DNA of 42,368 bases, from IMG/VR virus record IMGVR_UViG_3300045988_008159, positions 1 through 42,368 of that record; one strand, written 5' to 3'. The DNA comes from a virus. Both the position numbers and the translations under genes were made by a program. Under the pieces are notes generated by a model, which ran no database searches, was not told the DNA's origin, and saw only the letters and a list, made by a program, of their open reading frames with translations. Position 1 is the first letter of the stretch; the number at the start of each line of letters is the position of its first letter. Below are positions 1 through 33,729 of this stretch, piece by piece.

Positions 1-141
1 AGGGCAGCTACGCAAGGCTCGACGCGGCCAAGGCGTTTGACGGGATGGGGATCGAGGAGCGGACGCTGCGGTATGCGGGGGAGGTCTATCATTTCGGAGA
101 CAGCCTCACGCAGCGGATGATCCGCGAGTACAACGCCCAGA
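1..141. repeat. Terminal direct repeat, copy 1 (identical to 42228-42368); overlap of a circular assembly
   Basis: Both window ends read agggcagctacgcaaggctcgacg...gagtacaacgcccaga in the same orientation. The match is 141 nt with no mismatch. Confidence 0.97.
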
Positions 142-3100
142 AGGGGAAAAACAAGGGCGTGAGCGCGGCGGAATACGCGCAGCACGTCCGGGACGTTTTC
201 GACAGAGGCGCGCTGGGTGAAAGCCTTGCAGGCACAAAAGACAGGCTGCTGGGAGACGGCATGACGAGGGCGGCATGGAACGCCGGAAAGGGGTTTATCA
301 ATGGCGAGGAAGCAGGAAGCACGGCTGCTGATGACGGCGGCAAACGGGATGCAGGTATGGATTCCGGAGAACAGGCTGGAGCAGTGGCAGAGGGCACAGG
401 AGGCGCAAAAACGCGATCCGCAAAGGCAAGCGCAGTCGCGGAACGAATTGAGCTCGAAAATCGCGTCCGCGCTGCGGGACAGCCGTACCTGAGCGGAAAG
501 GACATTGGACTGGAAAAGGGGTCGGCGCAGCGGAGCTTCCGCGAGGCCCCGGAGAGCACATGGACGGACAGCATGAAGGCTGCCGCCGCAATGCTCCGGC
601 GCGAGGGCTTCAAGGACGTGCATTTCACGGTCGGCGCGATCAGCATCGAGAATCAAAAAGCGAAGGTCACACGGTACGCGGATGGCGTGGTCATGGGCGA
701 CGCGGTGTGGATCAATGCGACGTCGAAGAAATGGACCGTGGAGCAGCTGGCAAAGCACGAGGCGTTCCACCATCAGATCAAGGACTGGCCGTATGCCATG
801 GACGCGGTGCGGCAGACACTGGCAGACGAGCTGGGCGAGGACGGCATTCAGGAGCTTGCACAGCGGTATGCCGAGGCATACGAGGGCTGCTACGACGGCG
901 CGGAGCTGGATACGTACATCGAAGAGATCTGCGCGGACGCCTACGCGGGCATGGACCGGATGCCGGAAGCAAAGACGCAGATCATACAAAAAGCCGCCCG
1001 GCAGGCGCAGGAGGCCCAGCAGGCGGCAGAAGAAAACGGCGGGACCAGAGGCCCGCCGGAGAAGTATTCAGTCAATGAAGGATTCAGCAAGGATGTCGCG
1101 GAGTGGTATCGAGATGGGATGCCGGAGGGAGAAGCATTCGTGCTTGGCTCTACTGGCGAGACGCTGCAGGGGCTTGGTGCGATTGAAAGCGACGTCTATA
1201 TGAATGGCGATAAGATCAACACCATTCTAAGGGAACATCCAGAAATGACAATCCGGGAGATTCAGAAGATTCCGGAATTGCTGGATGACCCGATTCTGAT
1301 TTTGAAAAGCAAAGGCTCTGGCAAAGGCGGGAACAGCCGTTTGGTGCTGTTCGGCTCGATCAATACGCAGGACGGTCAGCCTGTCCTTGCGGTGCTCGAT
1401 CTGCGTCCAAGGGAGAACGGATTTGTTCTGGACGATATGCAGAAGGTTAACAGCGCATACGCGAAAGCAAACCCCGCATCGTTCATTTCGCAGAGTGACG
1501 TTCTGTTTGCGGACAAAAAAAGAACCGTCCCGCTTCTTCGCCGATTCGGGCTTACAGTAACGTCCCGAGAGCTTCTGCGTGATGGTTCTATAGGTAGTAT
1601 ATCCTACCGTGGGAACAGTGTCAACATCTCGGGAGAGAAATTTTCTTCCATCGTCGAAATGGCAGACCAGCCTATGGATGCGAAATTTTCTGCTGACGAT
1701 ACCACAGCAACGCCGCAGGAAAACGACAAGACCGCACTCGCCTACTTTGGGCGGACATACAAATGGAGCGAGACGGGCTATGTTCTGCTGAACGGTGCGC
1801 GGCTGGACTTCTCCGGACGGCACGAGGGCGGCTCCGGCGGATACCGCAGCGTCGATCACAGGGACATCATTGACGCACTCGGCGAGGACTACGGCGGAGG
1901 AGACTACACGGGCGGCATGGTGCGCTTCATGCAGGAGGGCAACATCCGCATTTCCCCGGAGAGCGGCGGCATCAACCTTGCCGTCATGCCGACGAAGGCA
2001 CAGATGGACTCGCTCAGCGACTTCATCAGCAAGGAGCGCGGCGAGGTCATTCTGGACATTGACGACGCAAGCGGAAACACGATCTCCAGCACGGAGTATC
2101 CGCGCGGCACGCACGCAAACAAGGTTTTGCAGGACATCCGCAATTACTTTAACGACGGCACGCTGCCGGAGGTGAGCAATGCCCCGTCGGTCAGCCAGTT
2201 CCGCTATTCGGTGGCGGAGGATGCGCAGGAGGCGGGTGGGACAACCGCCTTCACGCTGGACAGCATTCCGAAGAAGGCGCAGGACTATCTGCGCAGAGTG
2301 CGCGGGCAGACAGCGGCGGCCATCCAGCAGACGCTTTCGATGCCGTTTGCGGCACGTCAGGAGGTCTTGAAGCCTGCCATTGAGGAAATGATGAACGAAT
2401 ATCTCCAGACCGGCAGGATCTCGCAGGAGACGGTAGACAGGAACTTTGAGGAGTCCTACAGGCGCGGCGTGGAGATGGACACGGAATTTTACGACCAGTA
2501 CAAGGACGTAAAAACGCGGCTGCGCGATCTGAAAGTCACGCTGTCGGAGGCAGACCGGGCGGACATTGCGGACTTTGACGATTTCAGAAGGGCTGCTTCG
2601 GGGCGGCTGCGCATCGCAAACGAGGGCGGATTGCCGGTCGATGTGGCATACAAGGAAATGCAGCAGATGGCGCCGGAGCTGTTCCCGGAGAGCATCACGC
2701 ATCCGGCGGATCAGCTCATGCGGATGTTCGAGGTATCGAAGCGAATCGAGAAGGTGCAGATGTCGCTGGACGAATACCACGGCGAGGACGCGGAGGAATT
2801 CAAGCGCTGGGCAAAGAACGACTACGAGGCCAGCGTGGAGAACATGCTGGGAGCGCTGAATGTGGCAAGGCGGTATGCCGAGGCGCGGATGCGGCAGCAG
2901 CAGGCGCGGGCCGTCCCCACGACGATGGAGGAGGTCAAAAGCCTGTACGCAGACCTCAAGGGCCTGCGGCGGACGTATGAGCGGGCGGCGGCAAAGAACC
3001 TGCTGACGGCGGAGGACAACAGCGTCCTGAATCGCCTCCTGCGCGGCGAGATCACGCCGGAGGACGTGCAGGGCATGGAGAATGCGCAGGGCATCCTTGC

Positions 3101-6100
3101 CATGTACGAGGCAAAGGCAGACTATGACGCGGCGGCGGCGAAGATCGCAGACTGGCGGCGATATCGGAAGGGCAAGCTCCGCGAGCAGGCGGACAACCTT
3201 CTGAAAAACGCGGAGAAGGCCAAGGACAAGACGGCCGGGATCGAGTACAGCCGGGAGACGATGACGCGCAACGTCCGGGATATCTTCCCGGAGGCGGACG
3301 CGGAGGCGATCAACAAGACGTATTTCGAGCCAGTCCGGACGGCCAGCGCGAACGCGAACAAGCTGAAAAACAAGCTGCGCGAGCAGGTCAAGAAGCTGAA
3401 TCTGCGCCGGAAGGCCCGCAAGGGCGACGCCGTGAGCGAGGCGCACGCGGTGCAGCTGCTGGGAGAGGCACAGGACAACATCCGGTATCTGGAGCAGCAC
3501 CCGAGGGCGCAGGACCGGGACGGCAAGACGCTCAATGAATGGCGGCAGATCGTGCTGGATCTGTGGGCGACGAGTCCGGGGCTGGACCGGGCGAAGATCG
3601 AAAACGCCGTGGAGACGTTCCGGAAGATCTATGACGGGCTATTTGAGCAGATGAACGACGTGCGCATCCGAAACGGCTATGAGCCGATCAACTACCGGAA
3701 GGGCTATTTCCCCCACTTCCAGAAGGGGACGACGGACGGCATTCTGGGGCTGATGGGAAAGGCGCTCGGCATCGACGCAGAGGTGACAGCACTGCCGACG
3801 ACCATCAGCGGACTGACGCACACCTTCAAGCCGGGCATCACCTACTTCGGAAATGCGCTGGAGCGCATCGGCTTTGACACGGAGTATGACGCGGTGGCGG
3901 GCTTTGACAAGTACGTGGAGGGCGCGGCCAGCGTGATCTGCTACACGGACGCCATCCAGAAGCTGCGGGCGCTTGCACAGCAAGTGCGATACCGCACATC
4001 GGACGAGGGACTGCGGGAGCGGGTGGACGACGTCCGAGCAAGAGACGATCTGACCGAGCACCAGAAGGAACTGGAGATCGAGGCGATCATGAAGCAGGGG
4101 CGCTTTTCGCTTTCGAACTTCGCGGTGGAGCTGGACGAATACATAAATCTGCTGGCAAACAAGAAGAGCAAGTATGACCGAAGCATGGAGCATCTGGGCG
4201 GGCGCAAGCTCTACAATTTCATGAGGGCATGGCAGAACCGGGTGGCGGCGAACATGGTCGCGGTCAACCCGGCGTCGTGGCTGACGAACTTCGGCGTTAT
4301 CACGCAGGCGGGGGCGCAGCTCAAGACGATCTCCGTGCTCAAGGGAATGTGGCAGACGCTGGCAAACATCAAGACGAGCGACGGACTTGTGGAAGCGAGC
4401 GACTTCCTCACAAACCGCGCCGGAAGCGATCCACTGGTCCGAACCTGGCAGCAGAGCGCAAGCGCGTTTCTGTCCACACCAATGGAGTGGATCGACCAGT
4501 TTTCAGCGGGAACCATTGTCCGGGCACGGTACATGGAGAACATCGAACGCGGCATGAGCGAGGAGACGGCGATGCGCGAGGCGGACGATTTCGCGGCAAA
4601 CGTGATGGCAGACCGCTCGAAGGGCGCGATGCCGACGATCTTTGAGTCGCGAAATCCGCTTATGAAAATGCTCACGCAGTTCCAGCTGGAGGTCAACAAC
4701 ACATATTCGTATCTCTTCAAGGATCTCCCGCGCGAGCAGCGGAAGAAGGGCGTCCGATATCTGGCACTGGCGCTGTTCAAGTTCCTGATCGGCGGATTCC
4801 TTTACAACGAGCTATATGAATATCTCATCGGAAGACGCCCGATGCTCGATCCGCTGGGGATCGTCAACGACACAGTGGGCGATCTGACGGGGTATGAGCT
4901 GAATAATCTGGTGGACGCTGCGACCGGCGGCGGACTTATCAAGGAGTCGGAGCAGGAGAGCGCGATTAGAAGCGCAGGAAACCTTGCAGAAAACGTGCTG
5001 AGTGAGCTCCCGGCAACGGCAGCACTGAACCTTGTCGGGCTCGAAATTGACGGTGGAAAGCTGCCGTTCGGAAGTTCTTTCCCGGACCTCGGGAATATCA
5101 AATCAGCGCTGAACTCGGAGACCGCGACGGACGAGGAAAAGCTGGCGAAGATCGGGAAGGAAATGATCAACCCGGCGGCATACTGGCTGCTGCCGTTCGG
5201 CGGCGGGCAGATCAAGAAAATGTGGCAGGGCATCAGCGCTCTGAAACGGCAGGGCAGCTATACGGCGAACGGGCGGCTCCAGTATCCGATCTACACCGAC
5301 CGGAAGGGAGACAAGGCGAATGCCGTCTGGCGGACGCTGCTGTTCGGCAAGAGCGCGACGCCGGAGGCGCAGGCGTGGGTCGAGGCGGGCTTCGGCGCGC
5401 TGAGCGAGAAGGCGACGCAGACGTATGAGGCGATGCGCGCCGGAGGAGTTGACCAGAGAGACAGCTATGAGCTCATCAAGGCCATGTCCAAGGTCAAAAA
5501 GACCGACACGCAGACCAAGGAGCAGCTGCAAATGCAGCTCCTCAATGCGTTCGACATTGAGGACAGCGGGAAGGTGCTGTACTACTACAACATGATGGCA
5601 AGCGACAAGGAGCGGGCGCAGATCGACAAGCTGCTGGCAGAGGGCGCGGACATGGGAGAATACCTCCGGTATCTGCAAGAAAAGTCCGGCGTGACCGGCG
5701 AGAAGGACGCAGACGGAAAGACGATCTCCGGAAGCGTGAAAGCGGAGACCATCGCGCTGATAGACGGGCTCAATCTGTCGCCGGAACAGAAAACGGAGCT
5801 GGCGAAGGAGGACTACACGCCAACGGGATTTGAGCCTTGGACGGAAAACCACGACAAGCTTTACAAGGCCGTATCGACCGGGAAGGATCTGCGGAGCACG
5901 CTCAAGGGCCTTGAAAAGGACGGATACGAGCCGAAGGAGATCCGCGCGGCCATCACGGACATGTTCCGCGACGAGTATCTGGCGGCGGACAAGGCCGGGA
6001 AAGCAAGGCTCAAGGGATACCTGCGGAACGCATTCATGGTGAGCGGACTTTCGCAGAAGGAAGCGGAAAACAAGATCAAGAAATGGGAGGAGGCGCAGAA

Positions 6101-6104
6101 ATGA
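1..6104 (+). CDS. Giant polyvalent virion protein, C-terminal part (continuation of 39212-42368); zincin HExxH plus a MuF-C/PBECR-like block plus a hydrophobic C-terminal region
   Basis: The frame is open from base 3, so the Met at 45 used by the track is internal. The phase matches 39212 once 42228 is equated with 1. HEAFH lies at 756-770. The block LREHPEMTIREIQKIPELLDDPILILKS lies at about 1230-1310. Hydrophobic stretches lie at about 4230-4330 and 4750-4830. Stop TGA is at 6102-6104. Confidence 0.88.
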   Translation, partial: GSYARLDAAKAFDGMGIEERTLRYAGEVYHFGDSLTQRMIREYNAQKGKNKGVSAAEYAQHVRDVFDRGALGESLAGTKDRLLGDGMTRAAWNAGKGFINGEEAGSTAADDGGKRDAGMDSGEQAGAVAEGTGGAKTRSAKASAVAERIELENRVRAAGQPYLSGKDIGLEKGSAQRSFREAPESTWTDSMKAAAAMLRREGFKDVHFTVGAISIENQKAKVTRYADGVVMGDAVWINATSKKWTVEQLAKHEAFHHQIKDWPYAMDAVRQTLADELGEDGIQELAQRYAEAYEGCYDGAELDTYIEEICADAYAGMDRMPEAKTQIIQKAARQAQEAQQAAEENGGTRGPPEKYSVNEGFSKDVAEWYRDGMPEGEAFVLGSTGETLQGLGAIESDVYMNGDKINTILREHPEMTIREIQKIPELLDDPILILKSKGSGKGGNSRLVLFGSINTQDGQPVLAVLDLRPRENGFVLDDMQKVNSAYAKANPASFISQSDVLFADKKRTVPLLRRFGLTVTSRELLRDGSIGSISYRGNSVNISGEKFSSIVEMADQPMDAKFSADDTTATPQENDKTALAYFGRTYKWSETGYVLLNGARLDFSGRHEGGSGGYRSVDHRDIIDALGEDYGGGDYTGGMVRFMQEGNIRISPESGGINLAVMPTKAQMDSLSDFISKERGEVILDIDDASGNTISSTEYPRGTHANKVLQDIRNYFNDGTLPEVSNAPSVSQFRYSVAEDAQEAGGTTAFTLDSIPKKAQDYLRRVRGQTAAAIQQTLSMPFAARQEVLKPAIEEMMNEYLQTGRISQETVDRNFEESYRRGVEMDTEFYDQYKDVKTRLRDLKVTLSEADRADIADFDDFRRAASGRLRIANEGGLPVDVAYKEMQQMAPELFPESITHPADQLMRMFEVSKRIEKVQMSLDEYHGEDAEEFKRWAKNDYEASVENMLGALNVARRYAEARMRQQQARAVPTTMEEVKSLYADLKGLRRTYERAAAKNLLTAEDNSVLNRLLRGEITPEDVQGMENAQGILAMYEAKADYDAAAAKIADWRRYRKGKLREQADNLLKNAEKAKDKTAGIEYSRETMTRNVRDIFPEADAEAINKTYFEPVRTASANANKLKNKLREQVKKLNLRRKARKGDAVSEAHAVQLLGEAQDNIRYLEQHPRAQDRDGKTLNEWRQIVLDLWATSPGLDRAKIENAVETFRKIYDGLFEQMNDVRIRNGYEPINYRKGYFPHFQKGTTDGILGLMGKALGIDAEVTALPTTISGLTHTFKPGITYFGNALERIGFDTEYDAVAGFDKYVEGAASVICYTDAIQKLRALAQQVRYRTSDEGLRERVDDVRARDDLTEHQKELEIEAIMKQGRFSLSNFAVELDEYINLLANKKSKYDRSMEHLGGRKLYNFMRAWQNRVAANMVAVNPASWLTNFGVITQAGAQLKTISVLKGMWQTLANIKTSDGLVEASDFLTNRAGSDPLVRTWQQSASAFLSTPMEWIDQFSAGTIVRARYMENIERGMSEETAMREADDFAANVMADRSKGAMPTIFESRNPLMKMLTQFQLEVNNTYSYLFKDLPREQRKKGVRYLALALFKFLIGGFLYNELYEYLIGRRPMLDPLGIVNDTVGDLTGYELNNLVDAATGGGLIKESEQESAIRSAGNLAENVLSELPATAALNLVGLEIDGGKLPFGSSFPDLGNIKSALNSETATDEEKLAKIGKEMINPAAYWLLPFGGGQIKKMWQGISALKRQGSYTANGRLQYPIYTDRKGDKANAVWRTLLFGKSATPEAQAWVEAGFGALSEKATQTYEAMRAGGVDQRDSYELIKAMSKVKKTDTQTKEQLQMQLLNAFDIEDSGKVLYYYNMMASDKERAQIDKLLAEGADMGEYLRYLQEKSGVTGEKDADGKTISGSVKAETIALIDGLNLSPEQKTELAKEDYTPTGFEPWTENHDKLYKAVSTGKDLRSTLKGLEKDGYEPKEIRAAITDMFRDEYLAADKAGKARLKGYLRNAFMVSGLSQKEAENKIKKWEEAQK

Positions 6105-26092: not shown

Positions 26093-26839
26093 ATGGCAAA
26101 GAGATGCAAACGCCGGATATTCGCCGGAGCGGTATGCACCCAGATCGTTTACAACGTGAGCGAACAGGCGGACATCAAGAGCAGCAAGCCGCGCAAGCCG
26201 CGCTTCGCCACGCAGGCTGAGCGCGACGAATTCAACTCCAAAATTTCAGCGGGGAAATTCGCGGCGCTCATCAACGCCAACTTCGGCCCGACAAGCCTCT
26301 ACTCCACGCTGACGCTCAGCGCGGAGTTTGAGGCGCATACCGTGGAAGAGATCAAGCGCATCCGCGACAATTACTGGCGCAGGCTTACATACCGATACCC
26401 GGAGGCAAAGATCGTGATGGTATACGGGCGCGGAAAATCTACGAACCGATTCCACATCCACATGATCTCCGACGGAATCCCGGAGGACGCCATTGCGAAG
26501 CTGTGGGGCCTCGGAAGCGTGGTCGAGAGCAAGCACCTTCGCAAGCACAACTATTATGTAAACCAGAACGGTGAAAAGGTAGATCATGGGCAGGACTACA
26601 CGGCGCTGGCGAACTACCTGCACGGTCACTGGCAGAAGGAGTTCGGGGGCCACAGATACAAGGCAAGCCGCACCTGCACCAAGCCGGAGCCGGAGCCTGC
26701 GACCGAGGCCGTGCGGGAGTACAGCCCGGAGCATCCGCCGGTCGCCCCGCGCGGCTATGTGCTCGTCGAGGCCAGAGCCACACAGTATGGATACCAATAC
26801 TATAAATATGTATTCGATCCCAAAAGGATAAAAAATTGA
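26093..26839 (+). CDS. HUH-type rolling-circle replication initiator-like protein
   Basis: The three RCR motifs appear in order: LYSTLTLS (motif 1), RFHIHMI (HUH), ALANYLHGHW (Tyr motif). Confidence 0.6.
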   Translation: MAKRCKRRIFAGAVCTQIVYNVSEQADIKSSKPRKPRFATQAERDEFNSKISAGKFAALINANFGPTSLYSTLTLSAEFEAHTVEEIKRIRDNYWRRLTYRYPEAKIVMVYGRGKSTNRFHIHMISDGIPEDAIAKLWGLGSVVESKHLRKHNYYVNQNGEKVDHGQDYTALANYLHGHWQKEFGGHRYKASRTCTKPEPEPATEAVREYSPEHPPVAPRGYVLVEARATQYGYQYYKYVFDPKRIKN

Positions 26840-26862
26840 AGCGGACGGGGGCCGCTTAAATC

Positions 26863-27114
26863 TTGCCTTGTAAATGTGTAGGGTTTTGCGACGATGCCGA
26901 GGGGAGGCGAAAAAAGTACTTGCAATGCGAGCAAAAGTGTGGTAAGGTGCTAGTGAAGGAAGGAGACCGCGTCGTCTGCCCGATATGCGGCAGACGGACG
27001 TCGGTCCGATTACTGGAGTCCACACGGCTCCGGGACTTCCCGCTGTACTGCAAAAATTGCAGGAACACCACGATCGTGAATACTGAGCCTGAGCCTATGA
27101 GCCTGAGCCGATGA
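26863..27114 (+). CDS. Cysteine-rich KTR-family-like small protein
   Basis: VVCPICGRRTSVRLLESTRLRDFPLYCKNCRNTTIVN fits the Cys_rich_KTR pattern. There is no in-frame ATG, so the true start is TTG or GTG and is uncertain. Confidence 0.6.
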   Translation: MPCKCVGFCDDAEGRRKKYLQCEQKCGKVLVKEGDRVVCPICGRRTSVRLLESTRLRDFPLYCKNCRNTTIVNTEPEPMSLSR

Positions 27115-27177
27115 TCTGTCCGCTGCTGCGGAGGTCGTCGGCTGCTTGTGCATCCGAAGGGTAATATGGACGAGCGA

Positions 27178-27215
27178 AAGCCGGATCTCCGCGAAAGCGG
27201 GGGTCCGGCTTTTTT
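27178..27215 (+). terminator. Strong intrinsic terminator separating the early and late regions
   Basis: A long, nearly continuous stem (aagccggatctccgc gaaa gcgggggtccggctt) followed by TTTTTT. Confidence 0.8.
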
Positions 27216-27346
27216 GCATATTTCGGAGGCTGTGCCGGGCGAAGGCCCGAGACAGTACGAGCCATGTTCTTTCCTTCCTACTGGGCGCGGAGTTGGGGAC
27301 CTCCGCGCCTGGCAGAGCTTCCGAAAAACGAAAGGGGGCGAAGAGC

Positions 27347-27856
27347 CTGAACGAAAAGGTATACAAGAGCGCGCGGGAGCTTCGCTCCGCAATCGACCGG
27401 TATTTCGCATCGATCTGCTACCGGGAGCCGGTGACGAGGACGGAGCCGGTGCTGGAGGATCGGGAATTTATCAGAAACGGAGAACGGATCGTGATGCAAT
27501 GCCCCGCGCTCGACAAATACGGACACACGCAGACGGCGGTCGTGCCGGTGATGCGCGGGAAAAAGCCGCTCATGCGCGAGGTATGGACACGGCCTCCGTG
27601 CATGCCGGAGCTGCTGGGCGCGCTGGGACTGGACGAAAAGCAATGGGATGCGATGCGCACATCGGAGGAGTTCGCAAAGGCCTGCGCGCGCGCAGGGGCG
27701 CGAATCGAGATCTACAACATCCAGCGGCTCGACAGCTCCGCCGCGAACGGCGCAAAGTTCCATCTGGAACGAAAGTTCGGATGGGATGAAAAGACAAGCG
27801 GCACGACGGAGACGGAGATCGAGCTTCCGGAGGAGATCGCACAATGGCGAAGATAA
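27347..27856 (+). CDS. terS: Terminase small subunit
   Basis: PELLGALGLDEKQWDAM...ARIEIYNIQRL...GAKFHLERKFGWDEK fits the TerS pattern, and the gene lies directly upstream of TerL. The track ATG at 27146 lies upstream of the terminator. The best RBS (AAGGGGG plus 8 nt) points to CTG 27347, so the start is uncertain. Confidence 0.65.
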   Translation: MNEKVYKSARELRSAIDRYFASICYREPVTRTEPVLEDREFIRNGERIVMQCPALDKYGHTQTAVVPVMRGKKPLMREVWTRPPCMPELLGALGLDEKQWDAMRTSEEFAKACARAGARIEIYNIQRLDSSAANGAKFHLERKFGWDEKTSGTTETEIELPEEIAQWRR

Positions 27857-29406
27857 CGCTCGACTTTTCGCGCATCTCCGACAAGCAGAAGCGCTTCATG
27901 GAAGCGCTGACGCGCTATGTGGCCTACGGAGGGGCCAGAGGCGGCGGAAAAAGCTGGTCCGTCCGCGCAAAGTCAAAGCTTCTGGCGCTCAGCTGGCCGG
28001 GGATCAAGATCCTCATTGTGCGACGGACGTATCCGGAGCTGCTCAACAACCACATCAACCAGCTCAGGCAGGAGCTGAACGGCGTCGCGCGGTATGCACA
28101 GGACAAAAAGCTGCTGACATTCCGCAACGGCTCCACGATCAAGTTCGGCTACTGCGCGAACGACAGCGACGTTCTGCAATATCAGGGTGCGGAGTACGAC
28201 GTGGTATTCATCGACGAGGCCGCGCAGCTCAAAAAGGAGTGGCTGGACGCCATCGACACAACGGTCCGCGGTACAAACGGATTCCCGAAGCGCACCTACT
28301 ACACGCTCAATCCGGGCGGTCAGAGCCACGGATATTTCAAGCGGCTGTTCATTGATCGCATTTTTGAGGAAGGCGAAAAGCCGGAGAACTACACGTTCAT
28401 CCAGGCGCTTGTGACCGACAATAAAGCGCTTATGGAGACGCAGCCGGAGTACGTCCAGACGCTGCAAAAGCTGCCGGAAAAGCTCCGGCAGGCATGGCTG
28501 GAGGGCCGGTGGGATATTTACGAGGGACAGTTCTTCGAGGACTTTATCAACAACCCGGAAGGCTACCGGACACGGCAGAACACCCATGTGATCGAGCCGT
28601 TCACGCCCGATCCGGGCTGGACGATCTGCCGGAGCTACGACTTCGGATACGGGAAGCCGTTCTCCTGCGCGTGGTGGGCCGTCGATTACGACGGCGTGAT
28701 CTACCGCATTCTGGAGCTTTACGGATGCACGCGCGAGCCGAACACCGGCGTCAAGTGGTCTCCGGACGTGCAGTTTCAAGAGATCGCGAAGATGGAGCGA
28801 GAGCATCCATGGCTGGCCGGAAAGCAGATCACCGGCGTGGCCGACCCTTCGATCTGGGACGCTTCGCGCGGTGAAAGCGTGGCACAGACAGCGGCCAGAT
28901 ACCGCGTATATTTCACGCCCGGCGACAATAAACGCATTCCGGGCTGGATGCAATGCCACTACCGGCTGCAATTCGATGAGAACGGGTACCCGCGCATGTA
29001 CGTTTTCAACACCTGCAAGGCGTTTCTCCGGACGATCCCGCTGCTCATGTACGATGAGCACAAGCCGGAGGACCTCGACACGAGCCTTGAGGATCATTGC
29101 CTCGTTGGGAGCACGTTAGTGCTCACGGAGCATGGATACAAGACGATGGAAAGCCTCGTCGGGACGACGGGGCGGGTGATGTCCTCGGACGGAAGGCTAC
29201 ACAGATACGGAGATGTGCGAAGAACAAGAAAAGACGCGGAAATCTTGGAGATCGAGCTGGAGGACGGAACAAAAATTCAATGCACCGATGACCACAGATT
29301 CATGCTTCCAAACGGCGATTGGATACACGCCGGGGATCTGTCGGCAGGGATGGAGGTAAAAACATATGGAAATTCAGAAGATCAGCGCGACGGCGCAGAA
29401 GTTTGA
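27844..29406 (+). CDS. terL: Terminase large subunit N-extein (418 aa) fused to an N-terminal split-intein half (102 aa)
   Basis: Walker A GARGGGKS, Walker B VVFIDEA, nuclease residues YDFGYG and GVADPS. From Cys at 29098 the sequence is CLVGSTLVLTEHG (intein block A), CTDDHRFML (block B TxxH) and GDWIHAGDLSAGMEV, then a stop at 29404-29406. Confidence 0.9.
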   Translation: MAKITLDFSRISDKQKRFMEALTRYVAYGGARGGGKSWSVRAKSKLLALSWPGIKILIVRRTYPELLNNHINQLRQELNGVARYAQDKKLLTFRNGSTIKFGYCANDSDVLQYQGAEYDVVFIDEAAQLKKEWLDAIDTTVRGTNGFPKRTYYTLNPGGQSHGYFKRLFIDRIFEEGEKPENYTFIQALVTDNKALMETQPEYVQTLQKLPEKLRQAWLEGRWDIYEGQFFEDFINNPEGYRTRQNTHVIEPFTPDPGWTICRSYDFGYGKPFSCAWWAVDYDGVIYRILELYGCTREPNTGVKWSPDVQFQEIAKMEREHPWLAGKQITGVADPSIWDASRGESVAQTAARYRVYFTPGDNKRIPGWMQCHYRLQFDENGYPRMYVFNTCKAFLRTIPLLMYDEHKPEDLDTSLEDHCLVGSTLVLTEHGYKTMESLVGTTGRVMSSDGRLHRYGDVRRTRKDAEILEIELEDGTKIQCTDDHRFMLPNGDWIHAGDLSAGMEVKTYGNSEDQRDGAEV

Positions 29407-29878
29407 CGGAGTGACGTATTACCTGTGCGGCACGTATTTCCAGCGAAAGGGACACCGGCTCCACAGGGCCGTGTGGGAGTATCACAACGGAGAGATACCG
29501 GACGGATACCACGTTCACCACAGGGACGGAGATCGGAGCAACAACGACATTTCGAATCTTGAACTGCTGGAAGGGCACGAGCATTTGAGCGGGCACATGA
29601 GCACGCCGGAAAGGCGCGCAGAAAGCGCGGCCTGCATCGGTGCAGCCAGAGAGGCCGCCCGCGTGTGGCACGGCTCAGATGCAGGAAGGGGCTTCCACTC
29701 AAAGCTGGGGCTTGAAAATTGGGAAAAGCGGAAGGTTCAAACATACGTTTGCAGTTTCTGCGGAAAGACATATCAGACCAAGTTCGTTTACCCGCAAGAC
29801 TCGAATCATTTCTGTGGGCCGAACTGCAAGGCGGCATTTCGGCGGAGGAGGATTCGGGATGAAGGTCAAATCGGTTAG
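29366..29878 (+). CDS. Free-standing HNH homing endonuclease between the intein halves
   Basis: It has its own GGAGG RBS and ATG 29366, in a different frame from both flanks. Contains HRAVWEYHNGEIPDGYHVHHRDGDRSNNDISNLELL and a C-terminal zinc ribbon, CSFCGK...FCGPNC. Confidence 0.85.
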   Translation: MEIQKISATAQKFDGVTYYLCGTYFQRKGHRLHRAVWEYHNGEIPDGYHVHHRDGDRSNNDISNLELLEGHEHLSGHMSTPERRAESAACIGAAREAARVWHGSDAGRGFHSKLGLENWEKRKVQTYVCSFCGKTYQTKFVYPQDSNHFCGPNCKAAFRRRRIRDEGQIG

Positions 29879-30074
29879 ACGCGCGGGACGTGCAGATGTC
29901 TACAACATGGAAGTGGAAGAAACGCACGATTTTGTAATACAAGGCGGCGTGATCTCCCATAATTGCGCGGACGAATGGCGGTATTTCTGCATGAGCCGTC
30001 CGGTGAAGCCGATGCTGGCCGTGCCGGAAAAGCCGCAGTGGATCGACCCGCTGAACATGATGGAGGAAAGATAA
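29859..30074 (+). CDS. terL: C-terminal split-intein half (35 aa) fused to the TerL C-extein (36 aa)
   Basis: GGAGGAGG RBS and ATG 29859. The product is MKVKSVRRAGRADVYNMEVEETHDFVIQGGVISHN|CADEWRYFCMSRP. Intein blocks F and G end in HN, followed by the +1 Cys and the TerL D..RY nuclease motif. Confidence 0.8.
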   Translation: MKVKSVRRAGRADVYNMEVEETHDFVIQGGVISHNCADEWRYFCMSRPVKPMLAVPEKPQWIDPLNMMEER

Positions 30075-31828
30075 TGCGTTACCCCGAACTGAACGCGCCT
30101 GCGCAGGAACAGCTGGTGACGGAGGCCTTCGCGGGCTACAACCACAACCTGCGCATTGCCGATGGCGAATTCTACGAGATGCAGAATCTCACATCGGACT
30201 ACTATCCCCTGCTGTCTCAGCGCGCGGCCCGCGCAACGGTCGGAGATTTCTCCGGCATCCAAGGGCTGCTGGCAAAGGACGCGCTGGCATGGATCGAGGA
30301 CGGCGTGCTGTGGTACAACGCGCTGTCCATGGCTCCGTACATGGGAGGGGTGCTGCTCTCCGAGGGACAAAAACAGATGGTGTCCATGGGCGCGTACATC
30401 TGCGTTTTCCCGGACGGATGGTATTTCAACACCGAGGACTACACGGACAACGGCTACATGGGCCATGAAAACCTCGTGGACTGCACGCAGACGGCGCTTT
30501 CCATCAAGGTCTGCACCGTGGACGGGGCCGTTATCACGATCACATACCGGCAGCAGGCCATGCCGGAGGACGCCGCAAATGACGCCTACTGGCTGGATAC
30601 GGGCAAGCATGAACTCAAGCAGTGGAGTTCCGTGCAGAGCCAGTGGGTGAGCATCCCGACGGTATACGTCAAGCTGGAGGCAAACGGAATCGGAGCGGGC
30701 TTCAAAAAGTACGACGGCGTGCAGATCAGCGGACTCGACGGGACGGATCAGATCGAAAAGCTCAACGGCTCCCACGTTTTGCAGGACGTCGGCGACAACT
30801 ACCTAGTGATCGTCGGGATCGTGGACGCGGACGCGAGCCAGAGCACAGGCGAGGTCAAGGCCGCCCGGCGTGTGCCGAAGATGGACTACATCACCGAGAG
30901 CGGGAACCGGCTCTGGGGCTGCCGGTACGGCGTGTCCGACGGGAAAACCGTCAACGAGCTGTACTGCTGCAAGCTGGGTGATTTCAAGAACTGGGAGTGC
31001 TATCAGGGCATTTCGACGGATTCATGGCGCGCAAGCTGCGGTACGGACGGACGCTTCACAGGAGCCGCGACGCTGGCAGACAGCCCGATTTTCTTCAAGG
31101 AGGACTGCTTTCACCGCATTTATCCGAGCGCGCAGGGCGCGCATCAGGTCAAGGAGATCAAGGCCCGAGGCGTGCAGCGCGGAAGTGAGCAGAGCCTGAC
31201 CGTCATTGCCGATAAGCTCTATTACAAGGCACGGGACGGCGTGTGCGTCTATGACGGCTCCCTCCCCTATCTGATCTCGGACGCCTTCGGGACGGAGCTT
31301 TACCGCAAGGCGGCTGCCGGAGGCGTGCGCGGAAAGTATTTCATATCGATGCAGGACAGCAGCGATGCCTGGCAGCTTTTCGTATATGACACGCTCAAGG
31401 GGCTTTGGCACCGGGAGGACGGCATGCATGCGACGCAGTTCGCCGCGCTCGACGATGAGCTTTATATGCTCAGCGCGGACGGGATGCTCGTCACGGCCTA
31501 CGGCTCCGGCGGCGGAAACGTCGAACCGGAGATCCCATGGTCAGCCACGACCGGGATCATGACATGCGGCCTCGTAGGAAAGAAATACATCTCACGGCTG
31601 AATCTGCGGATGCAGCTGCCCGTCGGAAGCGCGTGCGACTTCTGGATCGAGTACGACTCCTGCGGGGAGTTCCGGCACGCCGGACACATGGACGGACACG
31701 GACTGCGGACGTTCCTGCTGCCGATCCGCCCGCAGCGGTGTGACCATCTGCGGTTCCGGATCACAGGAAAAGGGCCGTTTAAGCTCTACAGCATCGGGCG
31801 CGTACTGGAAGCCGGAAGCGACGCCTGA
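30074..31828 (+). CDS. Large structural-module protein of unknown function (584 aa)
   Basis: TAATG overlap with the TerL C-piece. The track start at 29963 overlaps that gene. It is a beta-rich sequence located between terminase and portal. Confidence 0.7.
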   Translation: MRYPELNAPAQEQLVTEAFAGYNHNLRIADGEFYEMQNLTSDYYPLLSQRAARATVGDFSGIQGLLAKDALAWIEDGVLWYNALSMAPYMGGVLLSEGQKQMVSMGAYICVFPDGWYFNTEDYTDNGYMGHENLVDCTQTALSIKVCTVDGAVITITYRQQAMPEDAANDAYWLDTGKHELKQWSSVQSQWVSIPTVYVKLEANGIGAGFKKYDGVQISGLDGTDQIEKLNGSHVLQDVGDNYLVIVGIVDADASQSTGEVKAARRVPKMDYITESGNRLWGCRYGVSDGKTVNELYCCKLGDFKNWECYQGISTDSWRASCGTDGRFTGAATLADSPIFFKEDCFHRIYPSAQGAHQVKEIKARGVQRGSEQSLTVIADKLYYKARDGVCVYDGSLPYLISDAFGTELYRKAAAGGVRGKYFISMQDSSDAWQLFVYDTLKGLWHREDGMHATQFAALDDELYMLSADGMLVTAYGSGGGNVEPEIPWSATTGIMTCGLVGKKYISRLNLRMQLPVGSACDFWIEYDSCGEFRHAGHMDGHGLRTFLLPIRPQRCDHLRFRITGKGPFKLYSIGRVLEAGSDA

Positions 31829-31845
31829 CGCGAGAAGGAGGAAAC

Positions 31846-33729
31846 ATGGACGGAAACACGAATATGACGACGATACAGGACGTGCTGGGCGACATTGGAG
31901 CGGGTGAGGCGATGCAGCCCATCGGCGTGGCGCAGATCCGGACGGCCATGGACACGCTGAACAAGTACAAGGACGGAAAGTCAGCGCTCGAAAAGAGGCT
32001 CATTGCCTGCGAACAGTGGTGGAAGCTTCAGCACTGGCAGGAAATGAATCCGAGCGGGAATCCATACGATCCACAGTGGCGATCTGCTTGGCTCTTCAAC
32101 GTCATTATGGGCAAGCACGCGGACGCCGTGGCGGCGTTCCCGGAGCCTGCTATCCGGCCGAGAGAGCCGGACGACCGCTCCGAGGCGGCGATGCTGACCA
32201 GCATCGTGCCGGTGATCCTCGAACAGAACGATTTCGAGGAGACCTACTCCGATTCGTGCTGGACGAAGATGAAGCAGGGAACGCTGGCATGGGGCGTGTT
32301 CTGGGACAGCTCCAAGCTCAACGGACTCGGGGATGTATCCATCCGGGAGATCGATCTGCTCAACCTCTTCTGGGAGCCGGGCGTGACCGACATCCAGAAA
32401 AGCAAAAACCTGTTCTACGCGGAGCTGGTGGACAACGACGTGCTCAAGCAGCGGTATCCGCAGGTCGGCGACACGCTTCGAAGCGACAACACATTTGTCA
32501 GAAAGTACAAGACGGACGATCAGGTGGATACGACGAACAAGTCGCTCGTGGTGGACTGGTACTACAAGAAGATTGAAAACGGAAAAAGCGTGCTCCACTT
32601 CTGCAAATTCGTGGGCGAGACGGTCCTTTCCGCGACCGAGAACGATCCCAACATGCAGAGCGGGCTTTACGAGGACGGAGATTATCCGTTCGTGATCGAC
32701 GCGCTGTTCCCGGTGAAGGGATCCATTGCCGGATACGGCTACATCGACATCGGAAAGAGCGCACAGGAGCAGATCGACCTGCTCAATCAGGCGATCCTGA
32801 AAAACTCCGTGATGGCGTCCACGCCGCGCTGGTTCATCCGCAGCGACGGAAGCATCAACGAAAAGGAATATGCCGACTGGCGCAAGCCGTTCGTGCACAC
32901 GGACGGCAATCTGGGGCAGGACTCGGTGATGCCGATCACGGTCAGTCCCCTATCGGCCAACTACATAAACGTCATCCAGAACAAGATCGAGGAGTTGAAG
33001 TGGACGACCGGCAACACGGACGTAAACAACGGTTCGGTGTCCTCCGGCGTGACGGCGGCCAGCGCCATTGCCGCATTGCAGGAGGCGTCCGGGCGAAGCT
33101 CCAAGGACGCGACGCGCTCGGCATACCGGGCATACGCACGGCTCATCCGCATGGTGATCGAGCGCATCCGGCAGTTTTACGATCTGCCGAGAAAGTTCCG
33201 CATCCGGGGCCAGCTCGGGACGGAGGAATACGTCACCTACTCCAACCAGAACCTCAAGCAGCAGGAGCTGCTGGGCCTTGGCGGAGATGTGACATGGCGA
33301 AAGCCGGTATTCGATATCGAGGTATCCGCGCAGAAGTCCTCCGAATATACGAGACTCAGCCAGAACGAGCTGGCGCTGCAATTCTATCAGCTCGGGTTCT
33401 TCGATCCGACAAGGGCAGATCAGGCGCTGGCGACGCTCGACATGATGGATTTCGACGGCAAGGACGAGATCAGCCAGAAGATCGCGCAGAACGGGACGCT
33501 CCAGCAGGAGCTGGCAAGCTGGCAGCAGATGGCGCTGGCACTGGCGGAGCGCTTCGACCCGGCCATGGCGGACGGGCTGGCACAGCAGATCCTTGGCGCA
33601 GACGCACAGGCACAGGCTCCGGCCGCCGGAAGCGCAAAGGCAGAAATGCCCGGCGAAGGAGCGGGCACGGAGGCAAAGACCGTGACGGATGCGCGCGAGC
33701 AGTCGCAGAAGAGCACACAGCCGGACTGA
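31846..33729 (+). CDS. Portal protein
   Basis: A 627-aa protein with an acidic, Ala/Gln-rich C-terminal tail. It lies upstream of the scaffold and capsid genes. GAAGGAGG RBS. Confidence 0.8.
   Translation: MDGNTNMTTIQDVLGDIGAGEAMQPIGVAQIRTAMDTLNKYKDGKSALEKRLIACEQWWKLQHWQEMNPSGNPYDPQWRSAWLFNVIMGKHADAVAAFPEPAIRPREPDDRSEAAMLTSIVPVILEQNDFEETYSDSCWTKMKQGTLAWGVFWDSSKLNGLGDVSIREIDLLNLFWEPGVTDIQKSKNLFYAELVDNDVLKQRYPQVGDTLRSDNTFVRKYKTDDQVDTTNKSLVVDWYYKKIENGKSVLHFCKFVGETVLSATENDPNMQSGLYEDGDYPFVIDALFPVKGSIAGYGYIDIGKSAQEQIDLLNQAILKNSVMASTPRWFIRSDGSINEKEYADWRKPFVHTDGNLGQDSVMPITVSPLSANYINVIQNKIEELKWTTGNTDVNNGSVSSGVTAASAIAALQEASGRSSKDATRSAYRAYARLIRMVIERIRQFYDLPRKFRIRGQLGTEEYVTYSNQNLKQQELLGLGGDVTWRKPVFDIEVSAQKSSEYTRLSQNELALQFYQLGFFDPTRADQALATLDMMDFDGKDEISQKIAQNGTLQQELASWQQMALALAERFDPAMADGLAQQILGADAQAQAPAAGSAKAEMPGEGAGTEAKTVTDAREQSQKSTQPD

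Follow-up and report, generated by a model that had tools for sequence, protein, structure and literature searches.

Fractured genes, in which an endonuclease gene with its own start and stop codons lies on the same strand between the two halves of a split intein, were defined by Dassa et al. (2009; NAR 37:2560; PMC2677866) from 26 ocean-metagenome loci that include one phage terminase. In those loci, the 3′ end of the endonuclease gene overlaps the start of the intein C-half (IntC) by 6–69 bp, and the endonucleases are GIY-YIG or Vsr-like; fracturing by HNH endonucleases was predicted to be possible (PMC2677866). The terminase intein of that set and AceL-TerL were later shown to trans-splice, with intein N-halves (IntN) of 37 and 25 amino acids (aa), and GOS-TerL and AceL-TerL prove that the large terminase subunit (TerL) can depend on trans-splicing (PMC11766414). 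In the Pseudomonas jumbo phage MIJ3, the DNA polymerase B gene (PolB; orf153/154/155) is fractured by an HNH gene (PMC6892783). Actinophage inteins, with TerL among their hosts, carry out-of-frame or antisense endonuclease open reading frames (ORFs), and the authors of that preprint propose that free-standing homing endonuclease genes (HEGs) invade inteins (bioRxiv 10.1101/2025.01.02.630785). Here we describe the TerL gene of the viral record IMGVR_UViG_3300045988_008159 from IMG/VR. The window analyzed is the whole stretch of 42,368 nucleotides (nt), positions 1 to 42,368 of the record, and the terminase region lies on the + strand. We consider it very probable that this is a true fractured TerL gene, carrying a class-1, DnaE-like split intein with halves of 102 and 35 aa and a mobile, free-standing HNH_3 gene in the gap.

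The locus resembles those of Dassa et al. in having an endonuclease gene with its own start and stop between split-intein halves on the same strand, in the overlap of the endonuclease 3′ end with the IntC start (20 nt in the window and 4–53 nt in its family), in IntN sizes of 88–105 aa and IntC sizes of 33–54 aa, and in its phage or metagenomic origin. Unlike those loci, the window family has a second conserved overlap, of 41 nt, between the IntN stop and the start of the endonuclease gene; its members are numerous in gut and rumen data and occur in cultured phages. The Dassa terminase itself differs in being a gp17-like myovirus TerL with an atypical split (122-aa IntC). GOS-TerL and AceL-TerL (Thiel 2014; Bachmann and Mootz 2015; PMC11766414) are likewise naturally split class-1 TerL inteins with Cys+1, and both have been characterized experimentally; however, they come from aquatic metagenomes and are atypical, with an IntN of 25–37 aa and an IntC of 104–115 aa, or up to 122 aa with the Dassa terminase counted (PMC11766414, PMC2677866), compared with 102/35 in the window. 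The MIJ3 intein interrupts a different host gene, starts with Ser and ends in HN|S (PMC6892783). The actinophage inteins also have an endonuclease gene nested in another frame within the endonuclease region of the intein, but their intein frame is open and contiguous, whereas in the window it is closed by stops, making a true split; their endonucleases are EndoVII-like, Vsr-like or LAGLIDADG rather than HNH.

Cyanobacterial split DnaE inteins (Npu, Ssp) share with the window the split position, the acidic IntN and basic IntC, Cys1, His-Asn and Cys+1. The two fragments of the Npu DnaE intein measure 102 and 36 aa. In contrast to the window, the host protein is DnaE, its two halves are encoded at distant genomic positions that no endonuclease gene separates, and sequence identity is only ~30%.

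Each ingredient of the fractured TerL gene thus has a precedent. A sequence-only reading of this stretch was not aware of any description of the arrangement for a terminase, which overstated its novelty: the fractured terminase of Dassa et al. (2009; PMC2677866) and GOS-TerL and AceL-TerL (PMC11766414) came before it. In the literature searched, we did not find a TerL intein split at the canonical site (102/35) and fractured by an HNH_3 gene, nor the abundance of such inteins, their presence in cultured phages or all of their evolutionary states at one site. A keyword search joining naturally split inteins with HNH endonucleases gave no match.

Organization of the TerL locus

The first cistron (ORF A; 27844–29406, frame 1, 520 aa, stop TGA at 29404–29406) encodes a TerL N-extein of 418 aa (27844–29097), which comprises the ATPase domain and most of the nuclease domain and ends in ...DLDTSLEDH. 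It continues into a 102-aa IntN (29098–29406 with the TGA) that starts at Cys1 (codon 29098–29100) and contains block A (CLVGSTLVLT) and block B (TDDH). The second cistron, a free-standing HNH endonuclease gene (ORF B; 29366–29878, frame 2, 170 aa), overlaps ORF A by 41 nt. Its GGAGG Shine-Dalgarno (SD) sequence (29352–29356), 9 nt before the ATG, sits within the IntN codons for Gly-Met-Glu-Val (GGG ATG GAG GTA; 29347–29358). The third cistron (ORF C; ATG at 29859, TAA at 30072–30074, frame 3, 71 aa) overlaps ORF B by 20 nt and has the SD sequence GGAGGAGG (29844–29851), placed inside the RRRR codons of the HNH C-terminus. It encodes a 35-aa IntC (29859–29963; MKVKSVRRAGRADVYNMEVEETHDFVIQGGVISHN) with blocks F and G and a terminal His-Asn, and then the 36-aa TerL C-extein with its TAA (29964–30074), which runs from Cys+1 as CADEWRYFCMSRPVKPML..., so that ORF C reads MKVKSVRRAGRADVYNMEVEETHDFVIQGGVISHN|CADEWRYFCMS.... 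The intein is broken at the canonical endonuclease-insertion loop, between blocks B and F. Stop codons occur in every frame between IntN (frame 1) and IntC (frame 3), and no frame joins the halves.

Direct reading of the DNA showed that the sequence-only reading had given the coordinates, frames, stop and overlaps of 41 and 20 nt correctly to the base. It had also assigned each downstream cistron its own ribosome-binding site and ATG, and both pairs are present (GGAGG with the ATG at 29366, and GGAGGAGG with the ATG at 29859), as is the 35-aa intein C-half followed by CADEWRYFCMS.

The insertion site in intein-free relatives

TerL homologues lacking the intein are 450–455 aa long, at most 89% identical, and read ...EDH|CADEWRY or ...EDHV(A/C)DEWRY across the site. 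The N-extein of the window is 89% identical to one of them (P0003, 453 aa), and the C-extein aligns with their C-terminus. Residues E416, D417, H418, D421, E422, R424 and Y425 are invariant in intein-free TerLs (15-sequence alignment). In the syntenic relative L065, whose nucleotide identity is 80–84% from the terminase into the genes downstream, the two flanks adjoin directly as ...GAGGATCAT|TGCGCGGAT...; its junction codons are GAT CAT|TGC GCG, and its right flank is also written TGCGCGGATGAGTGG. In a BLASTN comparison of the window with L065, the alignment breaks exactly at 29097/29964. The empty site and these breakpoints together indicate that IntN, the HNH gene and IntC form a codon-exact insertion of 866 nt (29098–29963). 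The placement of the insertion between EDH and CADEWRY, with a predicted spliced TerL of 454 aa, is confirmed by the intein-free homologues. The predicted junction is ...DLDTSLEDH-CADEWRYFCMSR, in a ligated TerL of ~52 kDa.

The closest intein-free allele (P0003, at L065 4240–4270) already has Cys at +1 (EDH|CADEWRY); in most other intein-free homologues this residue is Val (EDHVADEWRY or EDHVCDEWRY). The Cys in L065 could mean that the element was lost precisely or that the site was pre-adapted for homing. Another intein-free protein (P0102, 509 aa) enters unrelated Gly/Ala-rich sequence just before the D-H motif and is probably a frameshifted or mis-assembled copy.

Profile evidence for terminase and intein halves

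ORF A matched Pfam Terminase_6N (E=4.6e-15) and Terminase_3 (E=8e-10) and the PHROG family for the terminase large subunit (phrog_2, E=3e-39). Profile hidden Markov models (HMMs) recovered both ends of the predicted intein and the HNH domain. TIGR01445 (intein_Nterm, NCBIfam) scored 36.5 bits over ORF A residues 419–487 against a cut-off of 24.5, TIGR01443 (intein_Cterm, NCBIfam) scored 20.7 bits over ORF C residues 13–36 against a cut-off of 15.6, and ORF B matched HNH_3. Pfam Intein_splicing (PF14890) did not reach its gathering score of 35.8 with the halves scored alone (23.6 and 21.7 bits), although each half aligned to its proper end of the model. The best NCBIfam match of ORF C was the start of cyanobacterial split DnaE-C, which is its IntC (PRK07373, positions 2–38). 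By sequence, the solved structures closest to IntN plus IntC are naturally split DnaE inteins, namely 7qil (E=1.6e-8) and Npu DnaE (4kl5, 2keq). An alignment of 12 IntN homologues has 34 invariant columns, with C1, T63 and H66 among them, and the block G end ...THDFVIQGGVISHN|C is present in ORF C.

For the terminase itself, the spliced TerL found no match among PDB sequences, and the match of a TerL profile in PDB was confined to the ATPase domain of Sf6 gp2 (E=0.003). The role of the D-H Asp, which we take to be a catalytic nuclease residue, is therefore assigned from family invariance and general knowledge. BLASTN of the N-extein against annotated phages matched unannotated faecal contigs only.

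Conservation of the three-cistron arrangement

Contigs of relatives were collected by exact protein look-up and by scanning IMG/VR and GTDB genomes for sequence patterns, with sequences from ENA, JGI, Logan, IMG/VR and GTDB, and their layouts were compared by tblastn of the three pieces and by reading each locus in all frames. The identical three-cistron, three-frame layout was found in L001–3, L005–11, L014–16, L018–23, L028 and L066; it recurs in more than 20 independent assemblies with TerLs 51–91% identical. Lengths of TerL homologues are bimodal: ~450 aa without the intein, or 511–552 aa for an N-extein plus IntN that ends where ORF A ends. Among the best 120 TerL homologue clusters, 29 have an intein, and it is split in 29/29 and contiguous in none. 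The window's own 90% TerL cluster holds 640 member sequences, and the split-TerL layout is common in gut phages.

The dimensions of the pieces are also conserved. Throughout the three-cistron loci from L001 to L028 named above, IntN measures 102 aa and overlaps the HNH gene by 41 nt. In a check of 17 loci, IntN is exactly 102 aa in 12, and the IntN/HNH overlap is 41 nt in 13/15 loci; the HNH/IntC overlap ranges from 4 to 53 nt (15 loci). All 15 HNH-bearing loci have an SD sequence GGAG(G/T), 8–9 nt before an ATG or TTG (GGAGG in 13, GGAGT in 2). Likewise, the IntC start (ATG or GTG) is preceded by a purine-rich, SD-like motif in 17/17 loci, mostly GGAGG and otherwise GGTGG, GAGG or GGAG. A search with ORF C returned 282 clusters, and the 120 listed are all standalone ORFs of 55–123 aa. 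Of these, 109 matched a search for the ..N|C+1 motif; Asn|Cys+1 is present in all of them, His precedes the Asn in about 107, and the IntC is 35 aa long in 99/109. Standalone ORFs with a 35-aa IntC mostly begin M(K/R)(V/I)(K/R). With ORF B, 243 clusters were found, and the top 120 listed are all standalone ORFs of 162–207 aa, none of them within a longer protein.

In the window and 14 related loci, the overlap with the HNH start encodes a 12-residue IntN tail (...xEV), and the tails of HNH-less IntNs differ (SSCR, GDYKA, SSSDK). Because the tail is coded by this overlap, it predicts the presence of a following HNH gene.

We estimated the ratio of nonsynonymous to synonymous substitution (dN/dS) by the Nei-Gojobori method, only where dS was unsaturated (overall, dS ranged from 0.5 to saturated). 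The ratios were 0.08–0.21 for the N-extein, 0.13–0.27 for IntN, 0.07–0.11 for the HNH gene, 0.02–0.15 for IntC and 0.06–0.35 for the C-extein. Low values in all five segments indicate that all three reading frames are kept by selection as proteins. The recurrence of the layout in divergent contigs, together with this purifying selection, leads us to reject an assembly artefact.

These data bear on the possibility that the locus is a contiguous HNH-containing intein whose three frames result from two sequencing or assembly indels. In-frame HNH inteins do exist (literature cited in bioRxiv 10.1101/2025.01.02.630785), and both junctions are short overlaps at which single indels would fuse the frames. 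However, the same frames, stops and starts occur in more than 20 independent assemblies over the dS range given above, and sub-families differ in their frame combination (0/1/0 in L012, L013, L024 and L025), with many stops between the pieces. Split alleles without HNH exist in L004, L017 and Brochothrix phage BL3, the start Met of the HNH ORF is also that of its free-standing homologues in phages PAE1 and Shemara, and 0 of 120 listed HNH homologue clusters lies inside a longer protein. We regard the contiguous intein as effectively refuted, and the proposal in the sequence-only reading of a genuine split-intein fractured gene is supported by recurrence, selection and the HNH-less split versions.

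In favour of a fusion of the ORFs into one cis-splicing precursor by programmed ribosomal frameshifting or read-through, the cistrons overlap (41 and 20 nt), and the fused product would carry its HNH domain where inteins usually have their endonuclease. Yet it would require two successive +1 shifts here and a +1 followed by a −1 shift in the L012 group, as well as a single frameshift without an HNH domain in L004 and read-through of a stop in L017. We found no frameshift-stimulating RNA structure at either junction (z = −0.08 and +1.32 relative to shuffled sequences), and the conservation of SD sequences and start codons at both junctions argues for ordinary initiation, making recoding exceedingly improbable.

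If the HNH gene belonged to a group I or II intron, the interruption would be removed from the RNA; a parallel exists in phage terL genes, which can hold introns with neighbouring HEGs (ICP1; PMC10055350). Against this, an Rfam scan of 27000–32000 at E up to 1 gave no match to an intron family, and the sequences on either side of the HNH gene code for intein halves, which score above curated HMM thresholds and are under protein-level purifying selection. The chance that the element is an intron is practically nil.

The HNH endonuclease family

ORF B matched Pfam HNH_3 (PF13392; E=5e-17) and phrog_15471 (E=2e-35). It combines an HNH beta-beta-alpha-metal core with a C-terminal CxxC...C...C zinc ribbon. 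Across HNH homologues, H33, H51, H52, N60, N64, H73, H77, C129, C132 and C150 are invariant, and C154 is conserved in at least 90%. An AlphaFold2 model had a mean predicted local distance difference test (pLDDT) score of 92 and a predicted template-modelling (pTM) score of 0.47; in fold comparison, its zinc-ribbon part resembles YacG.

Members of this family also occur as free-standing genes beside intein-less TerL genes. In Pseudomonas phage PAE1, the HNH gene lies between TerL (...AEDH|IADCIRY) and the portal gene, and in Salmonella phage Shemara it lies beside TerL on the opposite strand. The N-termini of both proteins are homologous to the window's MEIQKISATAQKFDG..., indicating that the ATG at 29366 is the native start of the family.

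The same family is overprinted, in another frame, in contiguous TerL inteins of Rhodobacteraceae phage LS06-2018-MD07 (L061, OP947163; 1125–3173), at the same D-H|C site, and Acinetobacter phage Highwayman (L062, OZ038341; 888–3170), at a nearby C-terminal site (...NHYIDA|C). In both phages, the intein frame stays open for ~200 codons across the HNH homologue. These two inteins resemble the inteins with out-of-frame homing endonucleases reported for actinophages.

Terminase-adjacent HNH proteins can belong to the packaging machine (Kala 2014, discussed in PMC10055350), and the family adjoins TerL in PAE1, Shemara and CL2, so we considered whether the HNH protein is a packaging accessory nuclease of the HK97 gp74 type that acts with terminase, rather than a homing endonuclease. 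However, its distribution is patchy: the window and more than 20 other loci have the gene, and the close relative L065 (89% TerL identity) and the split alleles of L004, L017 and BL3 lack it. The gene is on the opposite strand in Shemara, and in the window it sits exactly at the endonuclease-insertion loop of an intein. In addition, HNH_3 with zinc-ribbon modules and a best, if weak, fold match to the homing endonuclease I-HmuI speak against an accessory role. We judge that role unlikely, although packaging and homing are not mutually exclusive. The sporadic occurrence among close relatives and the variable orientation favour a homing endonuclease, and on this comparative evidence a selfish homing endonuclease, the most likely identity of the HNH protein, fits better than a dedicated packaging factor.

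Alternative states of the D-H|C site

Several relatives have a different arrangement at the same boundary. In L012, L013, L024 and L025, the HNH protein is longer (~200 aa, with a second zinc ribbon) and IntC has returned to the frame of IntN (frames 0/1/0), with many stops between the intein halves. Two loci are split without an HNH gene: in L004, the IntN stop overlaps the IntC start (ATGA), and in L017, an in-frame TAA and a 33-nt spacer precede the IntC ATG. A Firmicutes metagenome-assembled genome (MAG; CALACZ010000212, L029 3001–3498) contains a contiguous mini-intein of ~131 aa that retains the IntC Met (...GDCAMKIRSIR...). The near identity of its IntN to the IntN of P0004, a split allele with an HNH gene, suggests recent interconversion of contiguous and split states. 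In a rumen MAG (RUG498, L030 3001–3495), an in-frame deletion removes block G and the DEWRY extein motif, and this TerL is probably dead.

The states observed are thus empty, contiguous mini-intein, HNH overprinted in another frame, HNH-fractured split, HNH-less split and decayed. We tentatively suggest, with considerable doubt, that the D-H|C boundary hosts every stage of the intein/homing-endonuclease life cycle, which would make it the first tractable natural system for the gene-breaking model. If so, one could ask with this series whether DNA packaging is gated in time by obligatory TerL trans-splicing and whether the HNH nuclease serves as a weapon against co-infecting intein-less phages. 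It also offers a natural series for studying the invasion and breaking of inteins by homing endonucleases.

Split TerL inteins in cultured phages

A tblastn search against annotated phages showed that two cultured phages, whose TerLs are quite different from that of the window, carry split inteins at the homologous D-H|C site. In Brochothrix phage BL3 (L060, NC_015254; 727–2607), gp02 ends in IntN and there is no HNH gene; the next protein, annotated only as 'gp3', consists of a 35-aa N-terminal extension followed by IntC and the C-extein (...VYNMEVRDHHNYAVAGGFIIHN|CIDATRY). The predicted spliced junction in BL3 is ...EDKDNH-CIDATRYAFENDMTK. In Lactobacillus phage CL2 (L059, NC_028835; 506–2730), CL2_2 ends in IntN, CL2_3 is an HNH protein of the window's family, and an unannotated ORF before the portal gene (about 2580–2730) encodes IntC and the C-extein (...VYNMEVESHHNFAVDGGFIVHN|CMDATRYF). 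This ORF has no obvious ATG, GTG or TTG start beside IntC. We found no description of an intein in BL3 or CL2 in the literature searched. Viable phages whose TerL is split offer the strongest, though indirect, argument for rejoining of the pieces, or at least for their joint function.

They also bear on whether the selfish insertion has killed TerL, leaving a defective prophage or a non-viable contig. The decayed L030 relative, lacking block G and DEWRY, would be an example of such an outcome, and some loci lie in prophage-like regions of MAGs. Nevertheless, all five segments (both exteins, IntN, IntC and the HNH gene) show purifying selection, the catalytic residues have been preserved, and the arrangement is found in hundreds of distinct clusters, in viral contigs of roughly 42 kb and in the plaque-forming phages BL3 and CL2. 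A dead TerL in the window is accordingly very improbable.

Model for TerL assembly and spread of the element

A scan of 26800–32000 found no promoter- or terminator-like site within the element, counts being no higher than in shuffled sequences; with none between them, the three cistrons appear to be co-transcribed. We propose that they are carried on one late transcript and that each would be initiated from its own SD sequence and start codon, probably with translational coupling. The TerL-N-IntN and IntC-TerL-C proteins would associate through the intein halves, the basic N-terminus of IntC (MKVKSVRRAGR) pairing, in the manner of DnaE inteins, with an acidic stretch of IntN (EILEIELEDG). Class-1 trans-splicing through Cys1, TxxH, His-Asn and Cys+1 would then yield the 454-aa TerL and restore its invariant D-H...D-E-x-R-Y motif. 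The HNH protein may cut intein-less TerL alleles of co-infecting relatives, and recombinational repair after the cut would spread the whole 866-nt element. Judged from the sequences compared here, the nuclease motif of TerL is most likely rebuilt by protein trans-splicing.

Several points weigh against this interpretation. For the window's own junctions, the only support comes from independent contigs that are nearly identical, namely L007 and L008 for the three pieces together and cluster P0001 for the N-piece. An IntC relative (P0156) has Gly at +1 and the L030 locus has decayed, so not every copy need be active. Searches of the HNH ORF against PDB sequences returned noise only, and the top Foldseek match of its model in PDB, I-HmuI (1u3e), was weak (E=0.085, TM 0.31). 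The sequences show the anatomy of the locus, the families of its parts, their conservation under purifying selection, the empty site and the sporadic occurrence of the element; splicing activity, HNH cleavage specificity and homing are what we infer from them.

Non-covalent complementation without splicing is also compatible with the sequence: the intein halves would only associate, holding the TerL pieces in a complex, much as the fragmented Aeh1 NrdA is assembled without splicing (PMC2677866, PMC3045599). However, in copies 50–90% divergent, Cys1 and the Thr and His of block B never vary, and the His-Asn end and Cys+1 are hardly ever lost. This weakens the case for mere dimerization, which would not demand conserved splicing residues. 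Moreover, ~140 extra residues inside an invariant nuclease motif would probably be disruptive. Assembly without splicing is therefore improbable, and we retain trans-splicing as the preferred explanation.

Going by the genomic comparisons, DNA packaging in a large and abundant group of gut and rumen Firmicutes phages, including at least two cultured phages, probably depends on trans-splicing of TerL. The C-terminal TerL pieces of BL3 and CL2 are currently 'hypothetical' or unannotated, and genome completeness and terminase phylogenies will be mis-scored wherever an annotation pipeline takes the 520-aa ORF for a 'complete' TerL. This canonical-site, DnaE-like split intein family, of which there are hundreds of natural variants, is also a potential source of new orthogonal protein-ligation tools.

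Genes flanking the terminase

A small terminase-like gene (27146–27856, + strand; Pfam GP3_package, E=3e-6, just under the gathering score) precedes TerL, its 3′ end overlapping the TerL start. Downstream, the ATG of a 584-aa gene of unknown function (30074–31828, + strand) overlaps the C-extein TAA (TAATG). This gene has no Pfam match, and a 583-aa ORF is kept at this position in L065. It is followed by a portal protein gene (31846–33729, + strand; Pfam P22_portal, E=1.3e-30). In L001, L004, L005 and L066, the portal gene comes directly after the terminase; in the window, the 584-aa gene intervenes. Farther away, an ORF of 2019 aa (45–6104) has MuF_C as its sole Pfam match (residues 392–493) and appears to be a giant MuF-like protein of the virion, or an ejected one, and possibly polyvalent.

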